Source: Negaprion brevirostris
Lineage: Eukaryota
Direction of reading: 5' to 3'
NCBI GenBank assembly: GCA_030324005.1
Contig: JARDVH010000179.1
Coordinates: forward strand, 15,006,241-15,070,240
Length of the DNA stretch: 64,000 bases
This document shows, in pieces, positions 1 to 46,859 of this stretch (the first letter of the stretch is position 1; each line of letters begins with the position of its first letter). Both the position numbers and the translations under genes were made by a program. Under the pieces are notes generated by a model. That model was given only the letters and a program-made list of their open reading frames with translations, had not been told where the DNA came from and made no database searches.

Positions 1-250
1 AGGATGGTGAATGTGTGGAATTCACTACCACAGAAAGTAGTTGAGGCCAAAATGTTGTGTGATTTTAAAAAATTGGAAAATCTCTAGAGGCTAAAGGATC
101 AAGGGAAAGGGGGCAGTGAGGAAGGGGGGGGTGGTTAGGGGGTGGTGGTGGATCAAGATATTGAATTTGATGATCAGCCATAATGAAAATGAATGGCAGA
201 GCAGGCTTGAAGAACCAAATAGTCTACTTCTCCTTCTACTTTCTATGTTT
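1..250 (+). mobile_element. CR1-clade LINE 3' end fragment
   Basis: gtgaatgtgtggaattcactaccacag...gatcagccataatg...gaatggcagagcaggcttgaag...ctacttctcct tail; related tails at 3375-3445, 21090-21260, 25660-25760, 49830-49935 and 60490-60565. Confidence 0.7.
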
Positions 251-2084
251 CTGTGGCTTTGGCAGGGCCAAAAGATCCCACTGATGGCCAATGCAGAGCC
301 GTCTCCACAATGGGAAAACTCGCCACAGACTGCTGGAACATTTCAATCATTAATTAATAACTTTCCACTTTCTTCAAGGCTAATGGATTTCTGTGCTCTA
401 AGCCAAGCCTCATTGTGTGTTCTTGGCTGACAGCCCAGACATCCAACAGAACATTAAAACACCTGAGTCCCAGGGAAAACAACAAAAGCTTTTTTTTCAT
501 ACATACCTTACTGTCACCACAGGATTCATTGGTTCTATGCAGTATACAGCATGTGAATGAGCATAGCTAGGCATGAGGGGCTAGAAGGGTTGCTTGGGAA
601 GGCACACCTTGGCATGTTGGGTCATGAGGGGCCTTAGAGGGCATTGGGAGTGTATGGGTGATGAGGGAGTATGAGGGGTGAGGGTGTACGAAGGGTGAGG
701 GTTGGAGAACATTTCTGTTTTTATTACAACTGGGACAAAGTCCTACAGCACATTTTAAATAGCTCGCCTTTGCATTTTCAGTCCATGACAGCCTCCGAAC
801 TTTTTCTTAGGTCAGTTGGCCTGAATACAAACCACACCCTCCCCCACCATGAAAATGACATCCTTGTGGCCACCTTCTGCCAAGATGGGCAGGTTGAGCC
901 AAGAATTTTCTTGACTTCCACTACCATCTCAAGGATGAAAATCCAGCTCCAAAAGGCTTGGACTAAGGGCCCAGTTTACACTAACATAGTTTTATAGCAA
1001 TCCTCCAAGTTGTTATTGCTAAAATATGTAGGAACCGCACCACAGGGACATTTAAATTCTTCTTGATTCTAGTCTGGCACTGCCACATATTGTCCTGGAA
1101 GTAATCACACAAAGGAAGAGATGACTTCTTTTAAAGGCAGGAACTGCATCTTCCAGACCAATTTCTAAGCCTTCTCAAATACTGCTTCCTGGAATTACCA
1201 TTAGTGGGTGGGTTGCTCCATGACACTGACCAAAGGAGATAGTTGAAGTGTGAGAGCAGGACAGGAAAGGATTAATAATGCAAACTAAACTTGAAAAATA
1301 AACTACTGTGTGGAGAACAGAGAAACAGCTCAGGCGAGTTTGGAAGAAATGCTTTATTTTCATGCTTTAAAAAATTGATTTTACATACAAATCTAATTAT
1401 CAGAATAAACCATGACTATCACAAGGAGTGTTCAGCCTTTACTGACAGGATTGCTCACTATCTTACTCAACATTTGAAAGTCATATGTTAAAGTAAAACA
1501 GACAAATCTAAAAAGGCTGCCTCCTTACTCTGAGGTGAAAGACTCCTCTCCTGACAGCTGATTTGCCAATTGTCTAAGATCATCAGCATTTTTTTAGTTC
1601 TTTTGTTTCCCTTACCGGTTTTCTACACTTATTGAACAATGAATGCTAGCAGGCTTTCTGTCCATGGAAGGTCAGCATCATAGTTGAGACCAGTCCAATC
1701 CTCATATGCGCACTGTTCAGCACGAACATAATTCGGGGTTAATGTTCCCTGTTCCAAGAGTGGGGCAACTGAAGCTAATGATAGTTCCCCCATTGCTACC
1801 TTGGCTGAAAGCAGTAAAATGTTTGGACCTGTCCCTCCGGGAATGTGTGGTTTAGTATTATTGAACTGTAAAATTACATAGTTATTTGCAGCCTCTCTCA
1901 ACAAGGTCCCAGATTATGGAAAGGACCCATAGATTATCTGGCTCTTTGGCCGTAAATGGCACTTCATGTAACTCAATCAGCACAAGACATGCTTGAAACA
2001 AGGGGGCAATCTAGAAGTAACAAGATGGCTGAGGTTTCACAGTAATATGGATTACTCAGCTATGTTCAATCATGAGGCATAATC

Positions 2085-2445
2085 ACAAACCTAAGCTACA
2101 CCGTCTGTAACTGAACGATATGTATGAGATGGCCCAGGATTTGAGTCCTAATCACTGAGCAGACTGATCTCAGCTGGACAATGGTGCAAGCTCTGCAAGT
2201 GACCTGATCAATGGATTAGAAAGGGGAAAATCAGCTATGTCTCCTAATCTTTAGCCAATGTCCCTAAAAGTGTGACTGTGCTTCAAATAGATAGGTCCAT
2301 GATCAAATAGCCTTTCAATACTGCTGTCCAGATGTAGATATGAAAAGTTATCATTTAGGTGTGATACAAGTGGATGACTTAGCTTCCACAGAACTGTACA
2401 CTAGCCTAAATTAACACTTTCAAGAGATCAGGAAAGGATGAATGG
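2085..2445 (+). repeat. Old, highly diverged SINE-like interspersed repeat (unassigned family)
   Basis: Shares motifs such as aaagtg..tgtg, tcaaatagcct, gaactgtac and ttcaggagagg with 23290-23580(+), 35680-36010(+), 53830-54085(+) and reverse copies 2640-2990, 6590-6850, 30800-31075 and 53555-53800; matched by eye. Confidence 0.45.
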
Positions 2446-4019
2446 GGAACAGGCAAAAATGATTATAAAAAATGAAACAGTTGGATCCTCTGCACGAGTT
2501 ACTGTTTTGCATTTAGGACACTTATAATAATTGAAAGAAACAGTCCATTTCTATTCTGAAAACGTGTGTTTAAAAGTTGCTCTGGAAATTCAATGCTTTG
2601 TTCTTCCAACTTCCTCTTCTCTGATTCTTTCCCCCTAACTTTGCTGCCTCCTTCCTTTTCTGCATTTACTCAAATCTGCTGCCATTCTGTACAATGGACA
2701 TTGGCTACCCTCTTATACCACACCCAAATGCCAGTCATCAAATGCAAAACCATAGATTAAGTGCCAGCAAGTGCAGTCACAACTGAACATAAACTGGTCC
2801 TCCTCATGGTCTCATATTTTCAGCAGGAAATTGTGGACAGTAACACAGAACTGAAAATTCGGCTAACGTTTCTCCCTCCCTAATTCATGCTAATTGTGCC
2901 AACTCTCATCTTGACTGAGAATAACAGACTTATCAAACCTAGACCTTCCTGGTTGATATGATTGAGTGAGCTATTGGGAGCTTTCTTTTATGCCTTCGAC
3001 AACCAAGCATGAATAATTTGAGATACTGTGATAACTTGGAACTGTTTGCCAATTTGCCACTGTTTATCAAAGTCCAGGACAGCTGAACCAAGAGATCTGG
3101 TACATTACAGTCAAGAACTATTGAAATTGTAAGTTATATAGTTCACACTTTCAGCAGGTAAGGTGACAGTGTTGGAGAGTAGAACATTTTTAAAAAATTT
3201 TATATTCAATTTGGATCCAAAAAGCCTGGGCTGGATACCAGTTAGTACTAAACTGAATGTCTTCTTGATGTCCCNNNNNNNNNNNNNNNNNNNNNNNNNN
3301 NNNNNNNNNNNNNNNNNNNNNNNNNNNNNNNNNNNNNNNNNNNNNNNNNNNNNNNNNNNNNNNNNNNNNNNNNNCATGATCAGCCATGATTTTATCGAAG
3401 GGCTAGATGGCCTACTCCTGCTCCTATTTCATATGTTCTTATGATGTGTGCCCTGACAGTACAGTTCTTCAACTATTCAGCAGTGAAAGGCTGAGAAGTT
3501 TTCTTGCCGATGACTTTTAAAGCCATTATCCCCCCGGCTGTATTACAATACATTTCCAGGTCTATGATGTAAGCTGGGGAGGAGGCTTCAGAAAACCATG
3601 ATTTTGCTCCCTCTCTGTGCTTGGATTCAAAGGAGGTTGGGAGAAGGGGAGTTATTTCTTATTCTCAGCTCTTAAGCATTTTTTCTGATTAGTATCAGGT
3701 TGCTTAACTAGTGTTCCTAAAAGAGACAGCTCAAAAAGTGACTCCAAAATGGTCCTAGGAGCATTTATAGGCTCATCAATGCTGCCACCCACCTTGCCTT
3801 CTTTGTTTGGATCCCCCTCAATTTCTGACTTAGTTTCACAGAACAGTCACTTGACTCTTCCCTTCCAGAACCATTAGGCCTGGATGACCCATATTAATAT
3901 TGAGTTAAGTAGGAAATCTTCTAAAACCTGCACTGATGGGAGCAGGGTGGTAGGGAATTAGCCGTTTTATCGATAAATTTAAAGGTGAATCATTAAATGA
4001 GGTAGAACAAAAGATACTT

Positions 4020-4210
4020 TCTTTATGGAAGGAAATCTGTCATCCTTACCTAGTCTGGCCTACATGTGACTCCAGAGCCATAGCAATGTGATTGGCTCTC
4101 AAGTGCCCTCTGAAATGGCCTAGCAAGCCATTCAGTTCAATAGCAACTAGGGATGGGCAATAAATGCTGGCCAAGCCAGTAACATCCATATTCCACAAAT
4201 GAATAAAAAC
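4020..4210 (+). mobile_element. 3' half of a tRNA-derived elasmobranch SINE
   Basis: ggaaggaaatctg...tggcctacatgtgactccag...ggatgggcaataaatgctggcc; same family as 32190-32590, 40985-41340 and 55370-55680. Confidence 0.7.
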
Positions 4211-4779
4211 ACAGCCAGCCCACCCACTGGTTCAGAAAGCCTAAAGATGCAGCATCACTTGATTTATGGTGGCACGGTGGTTAGCACTGCTGTCTCACTG
4301 TGGGACATGCAGGGACCTATGTTCAATTCTGACCTTGGTGATTCTGGGCTTGGGTAAAATGCTCTTTTGCAGAGTTGGTGCAGACTCAATGGACTGAATG
4401 GCTTCCTTTGCACTGTGGGGATTCTGTGATCTGAACTTTGTAAGCATCAGTTGAGAAACAAGCATCATGTACACGTTAGACGGTAGGTGTAATCTTCGCA
4501 TGTTGAATCATAATGCACAAGTGCACAGGAGCCAGAATAGAGAGATAAAGTGTCACAAGTGTGAAGATATATTTTAGCTCTTTCTCCACTGGACTCAAGA
4601 TTCCAACTGTGAAGCCCCAGAATATCAATGAAGGCTTTGAGAATTCATTAGGGAAAGCTATGTGCGTTGGGCTGCTTGCCAACAAGTTTGTATGCAAATT
4701 GTTGAGAGTATGGAGTTTTTCAGCTCCAACTTATATTGATGCTTACACAGAGCATGGAGTCCATTCTGTCACGCATGGA

Positions 4780-4950
4780 GTGAATGATCTCCATGACAAC
4801 ACCTCAGCCAATCAGAGCTGACTTGTCAAACAATCAGCATCCTTTTCTCCTGGAGTATAAGTTGCTGTGATTTGAAATTTGGCATTCTTGTGTTTGTCCC
4901 GATGAGTGCAAGATGAAAAGCTTTGGCAACATGAATCTCTTCTCAGCAAT
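4780..4950 (+). mobile_element. Penelope-like terminal fragment with a decayed hammerhead motif (4895-4928)
   Basis: Reverse-complement homolog of 40080-40330; core reads CCGATGA (U to C change). Confidence 0.55.
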
Positions 4951-7900
4951 TTTCAAACTGGGAGGTATTGCTTCTGTCATCTGCTGTGGCCTGGAATTAA
5001 CTCAGCATACAAATTAAGGGCTCCGTGTCTTGGCACACACTGGTAGTGTTATCCAGGTTGTGATGCAAGGTTCCAGTCATGGTTGCAGTTGATGGCTTGA
5101 TAAGAAGCTTCCTTGATGAAGCACAGGAGCTACCTGCATTACTTTTCAGTAAAAGTTGACAGATCAGAGATTCTCTTTCAAGAGCTGCTGTGGGTATGTG
5201 CAGCACCCTTTTCCTTCTACTGCTTTCTCCTTTCTGCTCCCTCCTTACATTTCAGCTTCAAAGACAGACCTATGAGATCACCCATAACTAGAAACAGGAC
5301 TTCCAAAGCAGACAAGCGCAAGTTAGTACCAGCACAAAGTTATTCCCAGGACTCAGAAGTCACTTGTGAAATGTAGAAAAGACACAGAAATTAACTCGCA
5401 GCCTACAGAACAGGCAGAAATTAAAGTATAGGTGTCTAGGCTATTAGATTACGTGGAGTCTGTGCTGACATTAACATGAGTTTATTATGTGGTGAGCTTT
5501 GTGCTTTATGTGAAGACAATTTTTCAGGACACACTTTCCACCTTATTCTAATTCTGTGGTCTTGAAACATGACCAAACAGAACCTGTTTTGCTGGTACTT
5601 AATAACTCATAAGCCTTCAATAAGTAGAGAACAGAAAGTATATTTCTGGTCAGAAGCATGCTGCCTATAAATATTGGAAAAGCTGGAGAGGCATATATCA
5701 GGAGCACAGGAACATTTAAACTGCAGAATTATTTATAAAAATAGGACCTATTCTTGATTTTCATTTTCCAAAATGCTAAAAATGCACAGCACAATCAGCT
5801 ACTTGCACTCACCCCTCAGAGGCCCATTCCGTGCTGAGATCTTCAATCTCTCCTCATTCCTTTCTTAGCCTTAGAACCAATCTTTCCAAGGCCCAATTCC
5901 TTATTCTCAGAACTGGTCTTTTTCTGTGACCCAATCTTTTGTCTTTAGAACTGATCCTTCCCTGAGGCAGACACTCTCTCTCCACTGTACATACACCCAA
6001 GCCTGAAGAACCAATCTCTTCACGCAGGCCCTATATCCCTGCTTTCCAGGGAGCAATCCTTCACTGCCCTTTTGCCCCATACCCTCCCCATCCCAGGCTG
6101 CCCTTACATGAAGAATGCTGTGGAAATAATAGCTATCTGATCTAACTTCAATTTTCACTGTACTGGCATAATATTCAATCCAATGTACATCCTTGAACAT
6201 CTTTGTGCAGAGGATTAAACCTGAGCCCTCCCCATGTACCCTAAAATGGGAGGCCTGAAATTTCTGGGCCTGTGCTCTCACATCTGGGTTTTGGATTCCC
6301 CTAATTTGTTGTTCCCCATCTACCCTGTCAATTCCTGTCACTATTTTAAACATCTCGATCACATCAGCTCAGTGCTTCTTGAGGTCGCCGCTGATCAGAG
6401 TACAAGTCATTTTTACAATAATAGTAATAGTTGTATATCTCACTACTACAGGATAATGTAAACAATGTTCTGTGTAGTAATAAAGATGCTTTATTAGAGT
6501 CTTAACCATTTGGGAAGTTGTCTTGACAGCTTCATAATTAATATGAAGCAATGTGATGATCTAAATATTGCAATTTTCTTTAACCTCTCTCGAATTTCTC
6601 TCTTGTTCTCCTGAACATTCTAACTTCATGGTTTGATAGCTGCTTGTTGTCAAGTACTGCTTCCAAGTGACTATATTTCAACATGAACATAGGCAATCAG
6701 TACTAGCAGGGTATCTGATCTTGCAGTGTATGATAACCAAGTCCCATTGTCTTCATTCAGGCATCCAGAATTCTCTGAACAGTAAGCAGAGGGAACCTCA
6801 ACTAATTTGCCACATCACCTCCAGCTTGAAGATAAGAGGTCAACTATAAAACCCAAGGCAATTAATGTAGTGCAAGATGGGACTTCACTGTTTTTGCTGC
6901 CTAGTCCAAAACCACACAGTGTATTTTCTTTCACTCCAATTATTGTGATATATTGCCACTTTCCTTAAATCTAACCTGTGGCAGCAGCCTTCTGTCTTGC
7001 AAGACCATGGTTTTCACCCTTGTGGCCAATTCTGTGTTAAGTATTGCCTGGTGTGGTTTAGGAACTTCATCCTGACATGGCAGTCTCTGCGATATTTGCT
7101 GTAGAGGAAGACAATGACTGCATCAGAAGGTGCACGACTGGCTGGTCTCTGCTTTCTCTGAGTCATCTTCTTGGGCAGCTGAGCGTTGTGTTTCTGCTTG
7201 TCTCTTCAATGTCCTTCCAAACAGTCAGTCTCCAGAAACCACAGCCCTCAACGATTATCTCCCAGTTGTTAGTCTCAACACCTACATCTTCATATCTCAC
7301 TTGCCGCGGTCCTTGGCGTGGAGTATGAAGGCTCAACAGGTCATCAGCCAGTAGCCATTTCACCGTATTGAAAGTCTTTGGGTATAGGGCCATCATCTAT
7401 CTGATATGCATTATAAATTCAGGATGCTTGCAGACAGAATATCACATCAGGGGAGCTGACAACAAAATGTTGGTTAAGGCCACTTATTTTATCTTCTATT
7501 TTCCTCAGGATCCTCACATGCATCCTATTAATTTATGATATTTTGTCATCCTTTATCTTGGCTAATTCCCCTAATACTTTAATTTATTATATCAGCCCTC
7601 ATTTTGCTAATAAGCAGTTCAGAGCTTTTCTTATAGAAATGTAGAATATTTTCCTTAGTAAACACTCCTTGTCAGTTTTGGCATATCCCCTACAGCCTCA
7701 CCACCCTCTCCTCTCAAGGATCCCAATTCACATTCAATAAATCTCTAGTTATATATTTGTACAATACATCACTGTCCTTTTAACATTTTTGTAATTCTTA
7801 TTTTTATGCCCTCTTCTTCAGTGTAACTTCTTTATCTACAGCATACTGAAGTGTAGCTGCTTTTTTAATCGGTTATATATTTATTCTGCTGGTGTGGTTC

Positions 7901-10064
7901 CACATTTACTTGTTACTCATAAATCACAACAGTTCTATCTTTGTAGGCGTGCAAGTATACTGCTTAAGGAAAGTGACTGGTTAACATTATACTAATTCGA
8001 TTCACCCTTCTCCATTTGTACCTATCAATATTTGCTTTTCTATTTGCTCCTTCCTAAAAATATTATAGCCTAAGGTGTTTATTGCAGTAACAATACACTG
8101 CCTGAAACAAAACTGAGAACCAAGGGATCTGCCTAGCCCTCCATATGAAGAGTTGATGTGTGAAAGTTTTTCAGCTGACTTAATGAAGAAGGAACCAGTA
8201 TTTAGAAGCAGATTATTCTATAATCAGTTACTCAGCTGAGCACTGTCAGTACAGAAATGAGGCATCTCATACTTACCTCTGACAACCAATTTCTTTCTCT
8301 TCATAACCTTTCTTAGCTCTATGCTTTTGCTATTATGAGGAACATTGCTCCTCTGAGCTTTTCTCTATTACAAAGTTAAAAATAATAAAAACAAATATAT
8401 GTATTGTAATTAATACTGCAGTTTCTTAATTGACTGCCTGACCTGTAAGTGCCACAAGTTCACTTTTCTAGAATTCTTTAACAGTTAAATACCTACCCCA
8501 CTAAAGCTGCAGGATGTCCCTATAATACAGCATTACCTCTTACTTACTGGGAACATGGAATCTTACCACTATACAAAACCATATGTTAACATGTATCCAC
8601 CACATTTGAAATACCTCAGAAAAATCAGATAGCAAAGAAGTGTCAAAATCTTACCAAAAATGCCAATTTTCTGTAGTTTTAAACTGACCTCTCCTCACAA
8701 GCAGAAACTGTAAGTTGCTAATGCACAGAAACATCCCTCAACAATTAGCCTCTAATTGACCACAGGATCTGTCTGATAAAATCACAAAGTGTCTGAACAG
8801 TGACCGTAAGGCCAGGTTAAGTACAATTTATTCATAGCAGCTTAATGCTGCAACTGTGCTCCACCTCCAGATGTCAAGGGAGACCAACTAGTATTATACA
8901 AATGCTGGCATATATAAGTCTTATTGCCATTGCTTCAATGTGTGCTTTGAGTACAATTAATGTTTGCTGGTGTTGAACTTATTTCTAAAACCTGATGTTT
9001 CTAGTTATAACATTGATCATGTAGGCAAAAATTTAACATGGGCAGAGTATGGACTTAAGGCTGAGTCTAGTAATTGACTCATTCTCATTCACGTGAACAA
9101 TATAAGGTCACAATGCATTCAAAATAAATTCAAAAAGGGGCCAGATGCGGCAGACAGGCAGGGAAGGAACCAGCAGGGAACAAATGGAAAACCTCCAGGC
9201 AATATTTCCTGAAGAAAGCAAGGGATTGCTTAAACAATAGATATTGATAAACTTCTGATATCCGATAGGCTCAACCAATACTAAACAGCAAACTTCTTCC
9301 TTCAAAATGGGCATAAAAAGGAAACTTTTTTTTCTAATTTTCTTGCTGAAACACACTTTGTATTTTTGAACTCCTTGATTTTCAACTGTCCCAAAAAGTA
9401 ATTATTTGACAAACACTTTTTCACTGAGGTGATGGTGCTTTTATCCATCCATATAAACTTTAAAAGTATTTATAGTAAAAGCAAAAAAAACCATATATCC
9501 ATTATTTCAATTAACTCCAGCAAGAGTATTGGAAGGAGTGTGAGTTTTCATGACCTGTAAACATGGATCCTCATAAACCATATAGAAAGTTGAAATTCTT
9601 GCTCCTGGTATATCTCAAGTTGCTGATGCTAACAGATCCTCATGTTCCCAGAGCAACAATGCAAGGATAGCCCTTTCCAAAACTCCAGGCCCAAAAAATT
9701 TGAACAGAACAAACCAGCAAGTGAGAAATGTGTGAAAATTGAAACATGAGGCTGCATGGGCTGTATTGCCAGGACTTGCCAGCCACGTATGACCCATGAG
9801 CCACAGTTTGTATACCCCAGATTTGCTGAGATGCAAAAATAAATAACCAGGTTGGGAAATTAGTGCTATTAAAAATGTTCTATTCTCTATTACTGTGACA
9901 TCTAAAGCGAAACAGCATGGATGGGAAAGCGTAGAAAACATACATCAAGCAGAATTGGAAGCACAGCAAATTAAGGAAAGCTGTTTTTCTTTCTCTGTGA
10001 TTCTCTGTTTTGTTCTTTTTGGACAGTATGACATCATTTGCGATTCAATCATTTCCCTCCACTA

Positions 10065-10235
<171 letters not shown>

Positions 10236-14670: not shown

Positions 14671-16099
14671 CACTACTCTAAGAAAATCGCCTCTAAATAT
14701 GAGTAAATGGGTGGGCTTTATAATTATATAGGTAAAATAGAATAAGATCTATATGTTTGTTCACACATATAGTACCTCAAAAATCGCTTTAGAGATTAGG
14801 GGACATTGAAAGATGTTACAGAAGCATTCTTCCCATCAGCACAGAATTTCTAGATAAGCAGCATTGTTTGGAAGAACAGGAAATGTCAGAAAGGATTAGA
14901 GGACAGCAGGAAAAGCCCATGGATATAACAAAATAATCACAAAGGAAAATGTAAACATGGGAAGGTGAGGGAGAAAAGTTCAATGGGAATCCACTGGGTG
15001 GTGGTGCAGGAAGATGGAAATTTGATCTGTATTGATAGAGTTCTTTGTGCAAACCAAAATGAAGGGGCTAGCCTGGCTCCATTTCAATACCTTATCTCTT
15101 GAGAGTTGATTTTGTGAATATTGTGTTACTTTGCATGACTTTCACCGGGGAATTAGCCACAAATTGTGGAGTTTTTGCAAGCTAGCTGGGTTGTAAATGT
15201 TTAATGCACATCTTCGCTGCTATCATTCCTAACTCCCACCAATCACTGACCTTGTACTCTGATCCATTGCTCCACTCTCTCTTATACTGAACATAATCCA
15301 TTACAGTTCTCCCTCTTTAACTTTGAGGAGCCATAAAGTCTCGAAATGTTAACTGTTTTTCTCTCTCCACAGATGATGCCAGATGTGCTGAGTCTTTCTA
15401 GCATTTTTCTGTTTTTCTTTCAGATTCTAGCATCTATAGTAGTCTACCTTTATTTATATGAATGTTTAATTTTGGGATTATTTATTTTTGCTATTTTTAG
15501 TTTTATTTTTCACTTTTAGATCTACTTCAATTTTGAAATCAGAAGTCTGTTTACATATTTCTGTTGAACCCATAATCTTTCTGGTCTATACTGCAGCTCT
15601 ACAATGGGGGGAGTAATTAACCAAGGGAGGGTAGCCCTGCTTTTGGCTGAGAACTCATTGGGAAGGGTTGGTCTTATTAATACAATAAATATAAAACATA
15701 TCTATGTTCTGCTTTATGCTTATTTGAGGCTGGCTGAGCAAAATGTGGGATCACAGACAGAATGGTTCATGGGGTAATTAATCATAGTTTGATATTATTC
15801 AGTTGTGGAAACAGCTAAAATACTAACTGGACTGCTTATTTCTGAGGTCATGTAAAGGGTCAACACACAAGGTATGGAACAGGGGGGAGTGGAGAGCTTA
15901 ATAGTGAATGGGGAGGGAACATTTTTAAACTTGGATCACCCAGGGAAGAACAAGATAGGAGGAATAATTCTACTGGGGTAAGAAACAAGATCAGCCACTA
16001 CTGCTCATCAACAGTTTTTTGATTTGAATCACGGGCCCTAAGAGGCGCTTTGAGCGAACAGGAAGGACAGCTCCTGAAAGGAGGAGAGGTGATCAGGGA

Positions 16100-45170: not shown

Positions 45171-45471
45171 GCTGGATACAATAAAGGGAATCTGGCATGG
45201 GATGTATTGTCATCCTAACCCACACTGCACTTCTATAGAAACAAAGGACTTAATCGCCTTGGAATAAGTTCAATGCTACTGGGGTGTGGATTTGATGCAA
45301 TTCTTTAAGAGAGAGCTGGTGCAGGCTTGGGTGGAAGCCACAACAAAATCCAAAGCCATGCCAAAAAACACAATCCAAGTAAGCGCCAGCGATTCACAAT
45401 TCAGCGCTGCATAGCATGCCAAGGGTACTTAGTTTGTGTATGCATTAGGCTCAAAAAAATTACAAACCAAC

Positions 45472-45477
45472 CGTGGT
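45472..45477 (-). CDS. CACNA1A: Candidate 6-nt alternative microexon e31a (ACC ACG = Thr-Thr) in the IVS3-S4 loop
   Basis: Minus strand reads catctacatatag|ACCACG|gttggtttg. Phase 0-0, located in intron 31, upstream YCAY cluster, non-repetitive context. Inferred; no transcript evidence. Confidence 0.65.
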
Positions 45478-45479
45478 CT

Positions 45480-45620
45480 ATATGTAGATGTTGTTGATGG
45501 ATGATTGTAATTGGATTGCATTGGGATTGGTTTGCAACCAGTTTTAAAATTAGTTGGCATGGACACACAGACGGATACATGGATGACACATGAATTTCAT
45601 AGTGCATTTTGATTGGATGA
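45480..45620 (-). promoter_or_regulatory. YCAY cluster (putative Nova-binding splicing element) upstream of the candidate microexon
   Basis: About 7 TCAT/CCAT motifs on the pre-mRNA strand, e.g. tcatgtgtcatccat and tcatccatc. Confidence 0.5.
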
Positions 45621-46859
45621 ATTATTTCAGAAGGCGTTGTGCCAATAAAGCACAGATTAAAGACAGCATGTGAAAAGACAAAACAAGAAATACAGCAATC
45701 ATTATTGGCAGTTCGTTTTCTTTTATCGGCAATGATCTATATCAAAATACAATAGCAACAGACTGGTTCAGACAGTAATAGTGCACACTGGCTGCAGATT
45801 TTGGTCAGGAAATAACAATTAACACACGTGTATACATATACACACATTATTAGTCGACAGTTTGTTTTTAATTTGCCCTCTGGATATTTGGCACTATTTT
45901 CCTCACAATGTTTGCATAGTGATTATATAAAAAGCACCCATTAGCAGAGATTTTTCTCATTTTCTTAATTCTGCTACTAATTTGGATAAAAATAACTGGA
46001 AAGATCACACCATACCCAATTGGAAAATTGTCTGACTTCCAGGTTGAAAAAATAGTGCCCAAAAATAACCATCAGGTGGTGAGAGAGCACCAGTACCATT
46101 CAAAGGTAAGTGTTAGTATAGTNNNNNNNNNNATAGTTGATTTGTTTCAGAAGGCCTGTATATTGTTAAGTCTCTGTCAGTATACATATCGCTTATATAC
46201 ATTAAGGTTAGGTAAAAAAAACTGGTTACAGCAAACCTAATTCCTCATTTTCTCGTTTCTGCGCAATGCCCAAGTGGTTGGACCAATCTTTTACTATATA
46301 ACAATGATCAGGTGTCTCGCAAAATATCCATTCCATTTCTCACTTTTACATAGCCTTCCCAAAAGGCTGCTAATAATTGAACAGGTGCTTGGCAAACTCC
46401 TTATTTGCATTTATAAACGCACAATACAAACATTGTAGGGGTACTTAAACACAATATTATAATGAAGATAAGGCATGGTCCTTCACTCTCCCAAATACTT
46501 TTCCACTAAGGCATTGTCTCTTTGAAATGTTTAAGACTTTCATCCTTTAATTGTAAAAGTGCTTACAACACATAACAAAATGAGAACATCTATGTGTTTT
46601 GATCCATAACACTATGTACTATTTTCTATTTCTGCTATTCTTCTTTGCTAAACAGGAGTGGACAAGTTTACTTCTTGTTATAGAATATACCATTGCACAA
46701 AGTTTCATATCATATTTTAACAACATTTCATCCTGAAGAAGTAAAATATGGGAAATTTGTAATTTCTTTAAAATGTCAGCAGAATCTGTAATTGCTTTAA
46801 AGAATGTTTGAACTTGCATCAATTGTAAAGGGATTAGTTAGCAAGTATTAGCGAGAGAC

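Follow-up and report, generated by a model that had tools for sequence, protein, structure and literature searches.

A very probable six-nucleotide microexon at the e31a position of an elasmobranch CACNA1A gene

Introduction

The optional exon e31a is a classic example of how two residues can tune a presynaptic calcium channel. In mammals it lies at the exon 31/32 junction and encodes Asn-Pro (NP) in CACNA1A (Cav2.1) and Glu-Thr (ET) in CACNA1B (Cav2.2). The 64-kb stretch of shark DNA analyzed here (the window) holds, within an intron of a calcium channel gene, six nucleotides between an AG and a GT that would encode Thr-Thr (TT). This raises the question whether so short a unit is a real exon and, if so, whether it is the elasmobranch form of e31a.

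Gene identity

The minus strand of the window carries a voltage-gated calcium channel gene from exon 28 to exon 40, numbered by the mammalian convention, including:

57467-57303, minus strand, exon 29
54233-54123, minus strand, exon 30
53418-53335, minus strand, CACNA1A exon 31 (84 nt, IVS3; ends in ...TEFW on a whole codon, phase 0, with a strong GTAAGT donor)
42629-42513, minus strand, CACNA1A exon 32 (117 nt, IVS4 voltage sensor; opens at a codon boundary with KNII...)
41849-41784, minus strand, exon 33
36147-36050, minus strand, exon 34
35416-35266, minus strand, exon 35
34608-34481, minus strand, exon 36
24986-24890, minus strand, exon 37a
24424-24328, minus strand, exon 37b
12805-12700, minus strand, exon 38
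10683-10576, minus strand, exon 39

The translation (375 residues) was 97.3% identical to sawfish Cav2.1, its nearest named protein, 96.5% to catshark Cav2.1, 88-89% to coelacanth, bowfin and mouse Cav2.1 and 78-82% to five Cav2.2 proteins. A 17-row tree, from which 4 of the 20 chosen proteins (lamprey among them) were lost through trimming patterns, grouped the window gene with the two elasmobranch Cav2.1 proteins (100/99) and kept Cav2.2 separate (100/99); within this group the gene was closer to sawfish (84/85, not starred). Comparison with PDB sequences of Cav2.1, Cav2.2 and Cav2.3 gave bit scores of 83.6, 61.8 and 59.2 for exon 35 and of 118.5, 104.4 and 105.2 for exon 29, while exons 31 and 32 taken singly did not discriminate among the Cav2 paralogues. 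Judged by tree, bit scores and percent identities alike, the gene is the elasmobranch CACNA1A (Cav2.1) orthologue, as the original prediction had assumed. Of the database proteins, P0342 and P0274 are taken here to be from Callorhinchus and Diplobatis, respectively.

The candidate unit in intron 31

Exons 31 (IVS3) and 32 (IVS4) flank intron 31, a phase-0 intron of 10,705 nt in which five gaps account for 647 N. The candidate, ctacatatag/ACCACG/gttggtttg on the sense (minus) strand, places its 6 nt at 45477-45472 and consists of the following parts:

45472..45477, minus strand, candidate microexon e31a (ACCACG, Thr-Thr, phase 0-0)
45478..45479, minus strand, acceptor AG (TAG), with no adjoining pyrimidine tract and with YCAY twice, at -27 and -23
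45458..45471, minus strand, weak donor GTTGGT, overlapped by a rival donor, GTTTGT, that starts 4 nt later

These coordinates and the ends of the flanking exons confirm the predicted phase-0 AG-6nt-GT unit on the sense strand of an intron of about 10.7 kb. Insertion of the 6 nt keeps the reading frame and yields a stop-free FW-TT-KNII, and the rival GT 4 nt on is out of frame. The encoded dipeptide is TT, neither the NP of Cav2.1 nor the ET of Cav2.2. The surrounding island had been described as non-repetitive, and this was borne out, since blastn and nhmmer found no second copy in the window and scans of the intron returned no tandem repeat and nothing relevant in Rfam.

By itself, the AG-N6-GT pattern is at chance level, with 52 such units (28 with YAG) among the 678 AGs of intron 31. 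The donor of the 6-nt exon pairs with U1 at -5.2 kcal/mol, which ranks eighth of the 52; the 13 coding-exon donors of the window range from -4.9 to -12.2 kcal/mol. The unit rises above chance because a 240-nt stretch free of AG closes exactly at its acceptor.

The AG exclusion zone

Three features were defined upstream of the acceptor:

45480..45719, minus strand, AG exclusion zone (240 nt, ending at the microexon acceptor)
45655..45704, minus strand, putative distant branch point region and U-rich tract, at the zone's 5' end
45549..45554, minus strand, ACTAAT, an alternative proximal branch-point-like site (A at 45550, -73)

Among the 4,190 AGs on the sense strand of the window, this zone is the longest N-free gap (runner-up 142 nt), and the longest antisense AG-free run measures 168 nt. 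Its own composition predicts 8.9 AGs where none is seen; only 3 of 100,000 shuffles of the zone were free of AG, and none of 300 order-3 Markov introns reached 240 nt (mean 97, maximum 171). The 240-nt bins beside it contain 10-24 AGs each, and the AG-free zones of the gene's coding exons span 16-96 nt. The G content of the zone is 12%, but TG, GT and GC occur at or over expectation, so G is not simply missing. Runs of comparable length exist in the window for rarer dinucleotides (AC-free 251 nt, GA-free 230 nt). Among the 12 longest AG-free zones, a donor with G at +5 within 30 nt was found at the microexon zone only. The next-longest zones on the minus strand, at 14849, 13312 and 38122 (142, 134 and 133 nt), also end in YAG, but a good donor is missing from the 160 nt around each.

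Distant-branch-point exons are characterized in the literature by a long AG exclusion zone (PMC1431707). In the same work, zones of at least 150 nt were reported for 165 of 67,334 human introns and the exons behind them were more frequently cassettes, though Gooding et al. estimated that only between a half and a fifth of zones of at least 100 nt mark distant branch points. At 240 nt, the zone described here exceeds the 150-nt threshold. A putative branch point region also lies where PMC1431707 would place it, with a candidate branch A at 45702 or 45699 (TAAT/TGAT, -225/-222, imperfect consensus), another at 45657 (-180) and a U-rich tract from -222 to -183 that includes two successive 20-mers of 15/20 pyrimidines each. 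The CTAAT at -73 matches the consensus better, but no pyrimidine tract follows it. The exons characterized in that paper (PTB exon 11 and GABBR1 exon 23 among them) share with the candidate the long zone and the lack of a proximal tract, and may also share its U-rich tract and putative branch A near the 5' end of that zone; they differ from it in that the candidate exon is only 6 nt long and its branch point is read from sequence. The main text of PMC1431707 contains no occurrence of CACN genes.

On the evidence of this zone, the claim that the unit is a true exon is very probably correct: it very probably represents a real six-base optional exon at the spot occupied by e31a in mammals.

Inserts at the exon 31/32 junction

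The proteins compared at this junction comprised 286 named non-primate homologues (unnamed and primate matches were excluded), 255 of which span it. No insert was present in 238 of these, while the remainder carried NP (4, all mammals), SP (1), NL (2), M (1), VS (8) or VST (1). SP was found in coelacanth isoform X3 and NL in wolf eel cacna1ab isoforms X2 and X6, with isoform X8 of the latter lacking an insert. The single Met occurs at the e31a position of a cichlid Cav2.1 (isoform X2, P0117) and suggests that one teleost paralogue has the microexon in a form of just 3 nt. The VS and VST inserts were discounted, as they fit read-through of a GTRAGT donor; the exon 31 donor of the window itself reads V-S. 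The nine proteins concerned (P0170, P0183-P0185, P0188, P0191, P0197, P0199 and P0338) look like cases in which annotation read-through has replaced an unseen microexon.

A TT insert was found in none of the 255 named proteins spanning the junction. Both elasmobranch Cav2.1 proteins read FW/KNII without an insert; they are the sequences read here as representatives of two clusters, which contain 26 and 7 further sequences. Among the 150 matches listed for the 50%-identity representatives, none exceeded 87% identity. At the paralogous junction, the Cav2.2 PDB chain 7mix contains ET, and no ET was present among about 110 named Cav2.2 proteins, which indicates that protein sets often leave out a real e31a. 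The expectation that annotation would easily miss the exon agrees with its absence from both elasmobranch representatives and with the report that the human NP exon was novel to Ensembl, its splice sites being conserved in mammals and Xenopus (PMC4317164).

The predicted e31a position was upheld by alignment of the junction with the named Cav2.1 proteins and with chain 7mix. Since SP, NL and M occur in Cav2.1 of non-mammalian species, the dipeptide does not define e31a outside mammals, and the short inserts at this junction in named Cav2.1 proteins, together with ET in Cav2.2, make an in-frame TT exon the best reading. Compared with mammalian CACNA1A e31a, the candidate agrees in gene, exon 31/32 junction, 6-nt length, phase 0 and two residues, and differs in having Thr-Thr without proline and FW/KNII instead of FG/NNFI as flanks. 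With mammalian CACNA1B e31a it shares the paralogous junction, two residues and Thr as the second of them (7mix alignment), but that exon belongs to the other paralogue (the window gene is 78-82% identical to Cav2.2 and 88-97% to Cav2.1), and the first codon of the candidate is three changes away from any Glu codon. We consider it highly likely, from these comparisons and the AG exclusion zone, that the unit is the elasmobranch orthologue of the CACNA1A cassette microexon e31a, encoding an in-frame TT.

Alternative readings

The acceptor could be genuine and yet serve mainly a 10-nt exon, in which case the resulting frameshift and premature stop (69 codons past the start of exon 31) would make it a poison exon that tunes the amount of Cav2.1 and not its gating. 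The donor of this longer form, UUG/GUUUGU, pairs with U1 at -6.1 kcal/mol versus -5.2 for the 6-nt donor, and a GTTTGT donor is in use at exon 28 of the same gene. This difference in pairing energy is small for a crude U1 model, however, and every trustworthy insert at this junction of a named protein preserves the frame and adds one or two residues, which leaves the poison exon very unlikely.

Highly improbable, too, is that the unit is a chance product or dead relic, a G-poor, CAA-rich island without AG that happens to end in AG-6nt-GT. The number of such units in the intron, the low G content of the zone and the unseen TT isoform among the 255 proteins would all fit an accident. Against this stand the rarity of AG-free shuffles at the zone's own composition, TG, GT and GC frequencies that are not below expectation, and the placement of the window-wide record zone in the sole intron expected to hold a microexon, where it ends in an in-frame 6-mer.

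That the true e31a lies elsewhere in intron 31, as the Asn-Pro unit at 50766-50761 (preceded by a pyrimidine tract), as the TP unit at 47913-47908 (AG-free zone of 92 nt) or inside one of the five gaps with their 647 N, is the least credible of the readings, as the donors of the two units rank 51 and 47 of 52, with no U1 pairing and no G at -1 or +5, and nhmmer finds dispersed copies of the sequence around each of them elsewhere in the window (E 5.5e-4 and 4e-6). Donor rank and dispersed-copy setting were the grounds for rejecting both as e31a. These minus-strand units appear to be chance units in dispersed repeat remnants with non-functional-looking donors, and as such are a trap for motif-only searches. 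The original prediction had also named an AATCCG-like exon as a possible competitor; the sole sense-strand AA[CT]CCG hexamer (43647) is not part of an AG-6nt-GT unit.

Regulatory motifs and RNA folding

Nova2 represses e31a of both genes in mouse (PMC12149502, PMC5633781), although one table row of PMC12149502 gives Cacna1a exon 31 as '+', whereas its text speaks of skipping. The exclusion zone contains eight YCAY motifs, including those at -27 and -23, an enrichment that was not significant (shuffle p 0.18; matched by 3.5-25% of windows of the same size). Downstream of the microexon, two RBFOX-like motifs were noted:

45357..45419, minus strand, two GCATG motifs, at +53 (45419-45415) and +111 (45361-45357)

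Two GCATG per 200 nt are found in 0.9% of 200-nt windows. The full TGCATG, for which enrichment is reported in the sequence that follows alternative microexons (PMC4317164), is absent downstream of the microexon. The nearest UGC lies at -43, and there is no proximal pyrimidine tract; UGC is not strictly needed for SRRM3/4 microexons (bioRxiv 2024.09.17.613571). The candidate resembles SRRM3/4-dependent neural microexons in falling within their 3-27 nt size range, in being in frame and in having its putative branch point and tract away from the AG (PMC12871342, bioRxiv 2024.09.17.613571). It differs from them in its UGC at -43, its weak donor and a spacer far over the 93 nt examined by the SRRM3/4 authors.

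Folding of the region predicted a helix that would hide the donor:

45525..45539, minus strand, 5' arm of a predicted 15-bp helix (-62..-48; 11 Watson-Crick and 4 G-U pairs)
45472-45458, minus strand, 3' arm of the predicted helix, spanning the last exon base and the donor

Pairing probabilities of donor positions +1 to +8 were 0.83-1.0 in four window sizes, with a different upstream partner in the largest. The predicted duplex between donor and zone reached -19.0 kcal/mol versus about -11.6 for shuffled sequence (3 and 9 of 2,000 shuffles were as good) and was equalled by 5 of 490 overlapping genomic windows, two of which were its own; the donor duplexes of 12 other exons ranged from -8.7 to -17.5 kcal/mol. 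Folding of the whole region was not significant (z of +0.37 for 361 nt and of -0.6 to -1.9 for 100-260 nt), so that the duplex at the donor is the sole exceptional element of the fold. The donor-hiding helix (p about 0.002-0.005, post hoc) is treated here as a lead only, because it was tested after the fold had been seen and because the whole-region z-scores are weak.

Proposed mechanism

In the mechanism that we propose, the branch point and U-rich tract would lie about 180-225 nt upstream of the microexon acceptor. After branching, the spliceosome would scan to the first AG, and the first GT beyond it would delimit 6 nt; scanning of this kind would entail selection against every AG in the zone. 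The lack of a proximal pyrimidine tract combined with the weak donor would make skipping the default, and the skipped product would correspond to what both named elasmobranch proteins show. Binding of regulators to the spacer and to the GCATG motifs downstream may bring about inclusion in some neurons. Inclusion would add two residues to the extracellular IVS3-S4 loop (FW-TT-KNII), just ahead of the S4 sensor. In Cav2.2, e31a slows activation and gating charge movement (0.28 versus 0.14 ms; PMC2311404). By analogy with the ET insert of rat Cav2.2, inclusion of TT might slow voltage-sensor movement and opening.

Ancestral dipeptide and toxin sensitivity

The second Thr had been suggested to reflect the state before duplication of the Cav2 genes. 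Assuming that the exon ends in G in other species as well (Thr ACG, Pro CCG, Leu CTG or TTG), Thr and Pro differ by one base (ACG/CCG) at position -3 of the donor, which commonly holds either A or C. Under parsimony (Thr in the elasmobranch and in mammalian Cav2.2, Pro in coelacanth and mammal), an ancestral Thr takes one step and the alternative two, which favors the suggestion; its weak side is that the comparison turns on a single nucleotide at a splice-site position and that the first codon points the opposite way, ACC being one change from Asn or Ser codons and three from Glu codons. We put the odds of Thr as the pre-duplication second residue at about even, in a comparison that represents Cav2.2 by its mammalian exon. 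A bolder proposal joins this history to the fold: the elasmobranch exon would have kept the pre-duplication x-Thr, with Pro arising only in bony vertebrates, and would also act as an RNA switch, in which the 15-bp helix, as long as no neuronal RNA-binding protein has opened it, loops out the microexon, hides its 5' splice site and blocks scanning from a branch point more than 200 nt upstream. We regard this combination as rather unlikely.

NP is said to lower omega-agatoxin IVA affinity and, reportedly, can replace ET, in work ascribed to Bourinet and to Lin, both of 1999. The P/Q difference has been attributed to splicing (reviewed in PMC3210452). Zebrafish Cav2.1 is reported to respond relatively little to omega-agatoxin IVA (PMC7939481), and the P/Q label therefore need not hold for fish; this, together with the FW/KNII versus FG/NNFI difference at the insertion point, weakens the 'P- versus Q-type' label originally attached to the candidate. 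In the IVS3-S4 loop (53340-53335 and 42629-42618, minus strand), elasmobranch Cav2.1 reads FW/KNII where tetrapods have FG/NNFI, and a Trp recurs at this position in many teleost Cav2.1 proteins (LW, FW, IW, VW). This loop difference may affect the binding of gating modifiers independently of the microexon.

Relation to known microexons

A search of the literature found no paper joining microexon, CACNA1A and shark; most subscription papers lay outside this search, and splicing databases or cartilaginous-fish RefSeq isoforms may already hold the exon. In zebrafish data, no cacna1a or cacna1b microexon was present in 12 of the 13 supplement files of PMC12626420, and 12 supplement files of PMC12626424 likewise held no cacna1a/b microexon, only a 97-nt exon. 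Excerpts of PMC2014790, PMC11580629 and PMC7555146 contained nothing on e31a beyond references.

The comparisons above are best explained by a site and a short in-frame length that were kept across vertebrates while the residues varied (NP, SP, NL, M, TT, ET); the switch looks old, and its two amino acids look to drift. If the elasmobranch e31a is real, the switch would be present in each of the two main branches of jawed vertebrates. Together with the SP, NL and M of other fishes, it would indicate that position and short length were kept but not the residues, proline included. Such drift would be unusual, as microexons are generally described as highly conserved, and would provide a set of natural variants with which to ask if the domain IV sensor is slowed by the length of the loop or by its chemistry. 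The finding would extend known biology without a new mechanism, its novelty being the Thr-Thr dipeptide at e31a, and the AG-free zone could offer a cheap route to unannotated microexons in species without neural RNA-seq.

Other features of the locus

Comparison of positions 1-10070 of the window with the named elasmobranch proteins revealed neither exon 41 nor any later exon; either intron 40 extends beyond the end of the window or exon 41 lies inside the gap at 3275-3374. Exon 30 (54233-54123, minus strand) is the most lineage-specific exon, matching elasmobranch Cav2.1 at 35-36 of 37 residues and any other Cav2 protein tested at only 20-25 of 37. The mutually exclusive exons 37a and 37b are both in the window, 465 nt apart. 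Exon 37a is the form found in the sawfish and bowfin proteins, whereas 37b is that of catshark and coelacanth (identical); the latter exon has an AAG acceptor and, at 96 nt, the longest AG-free zone among the coding exons.
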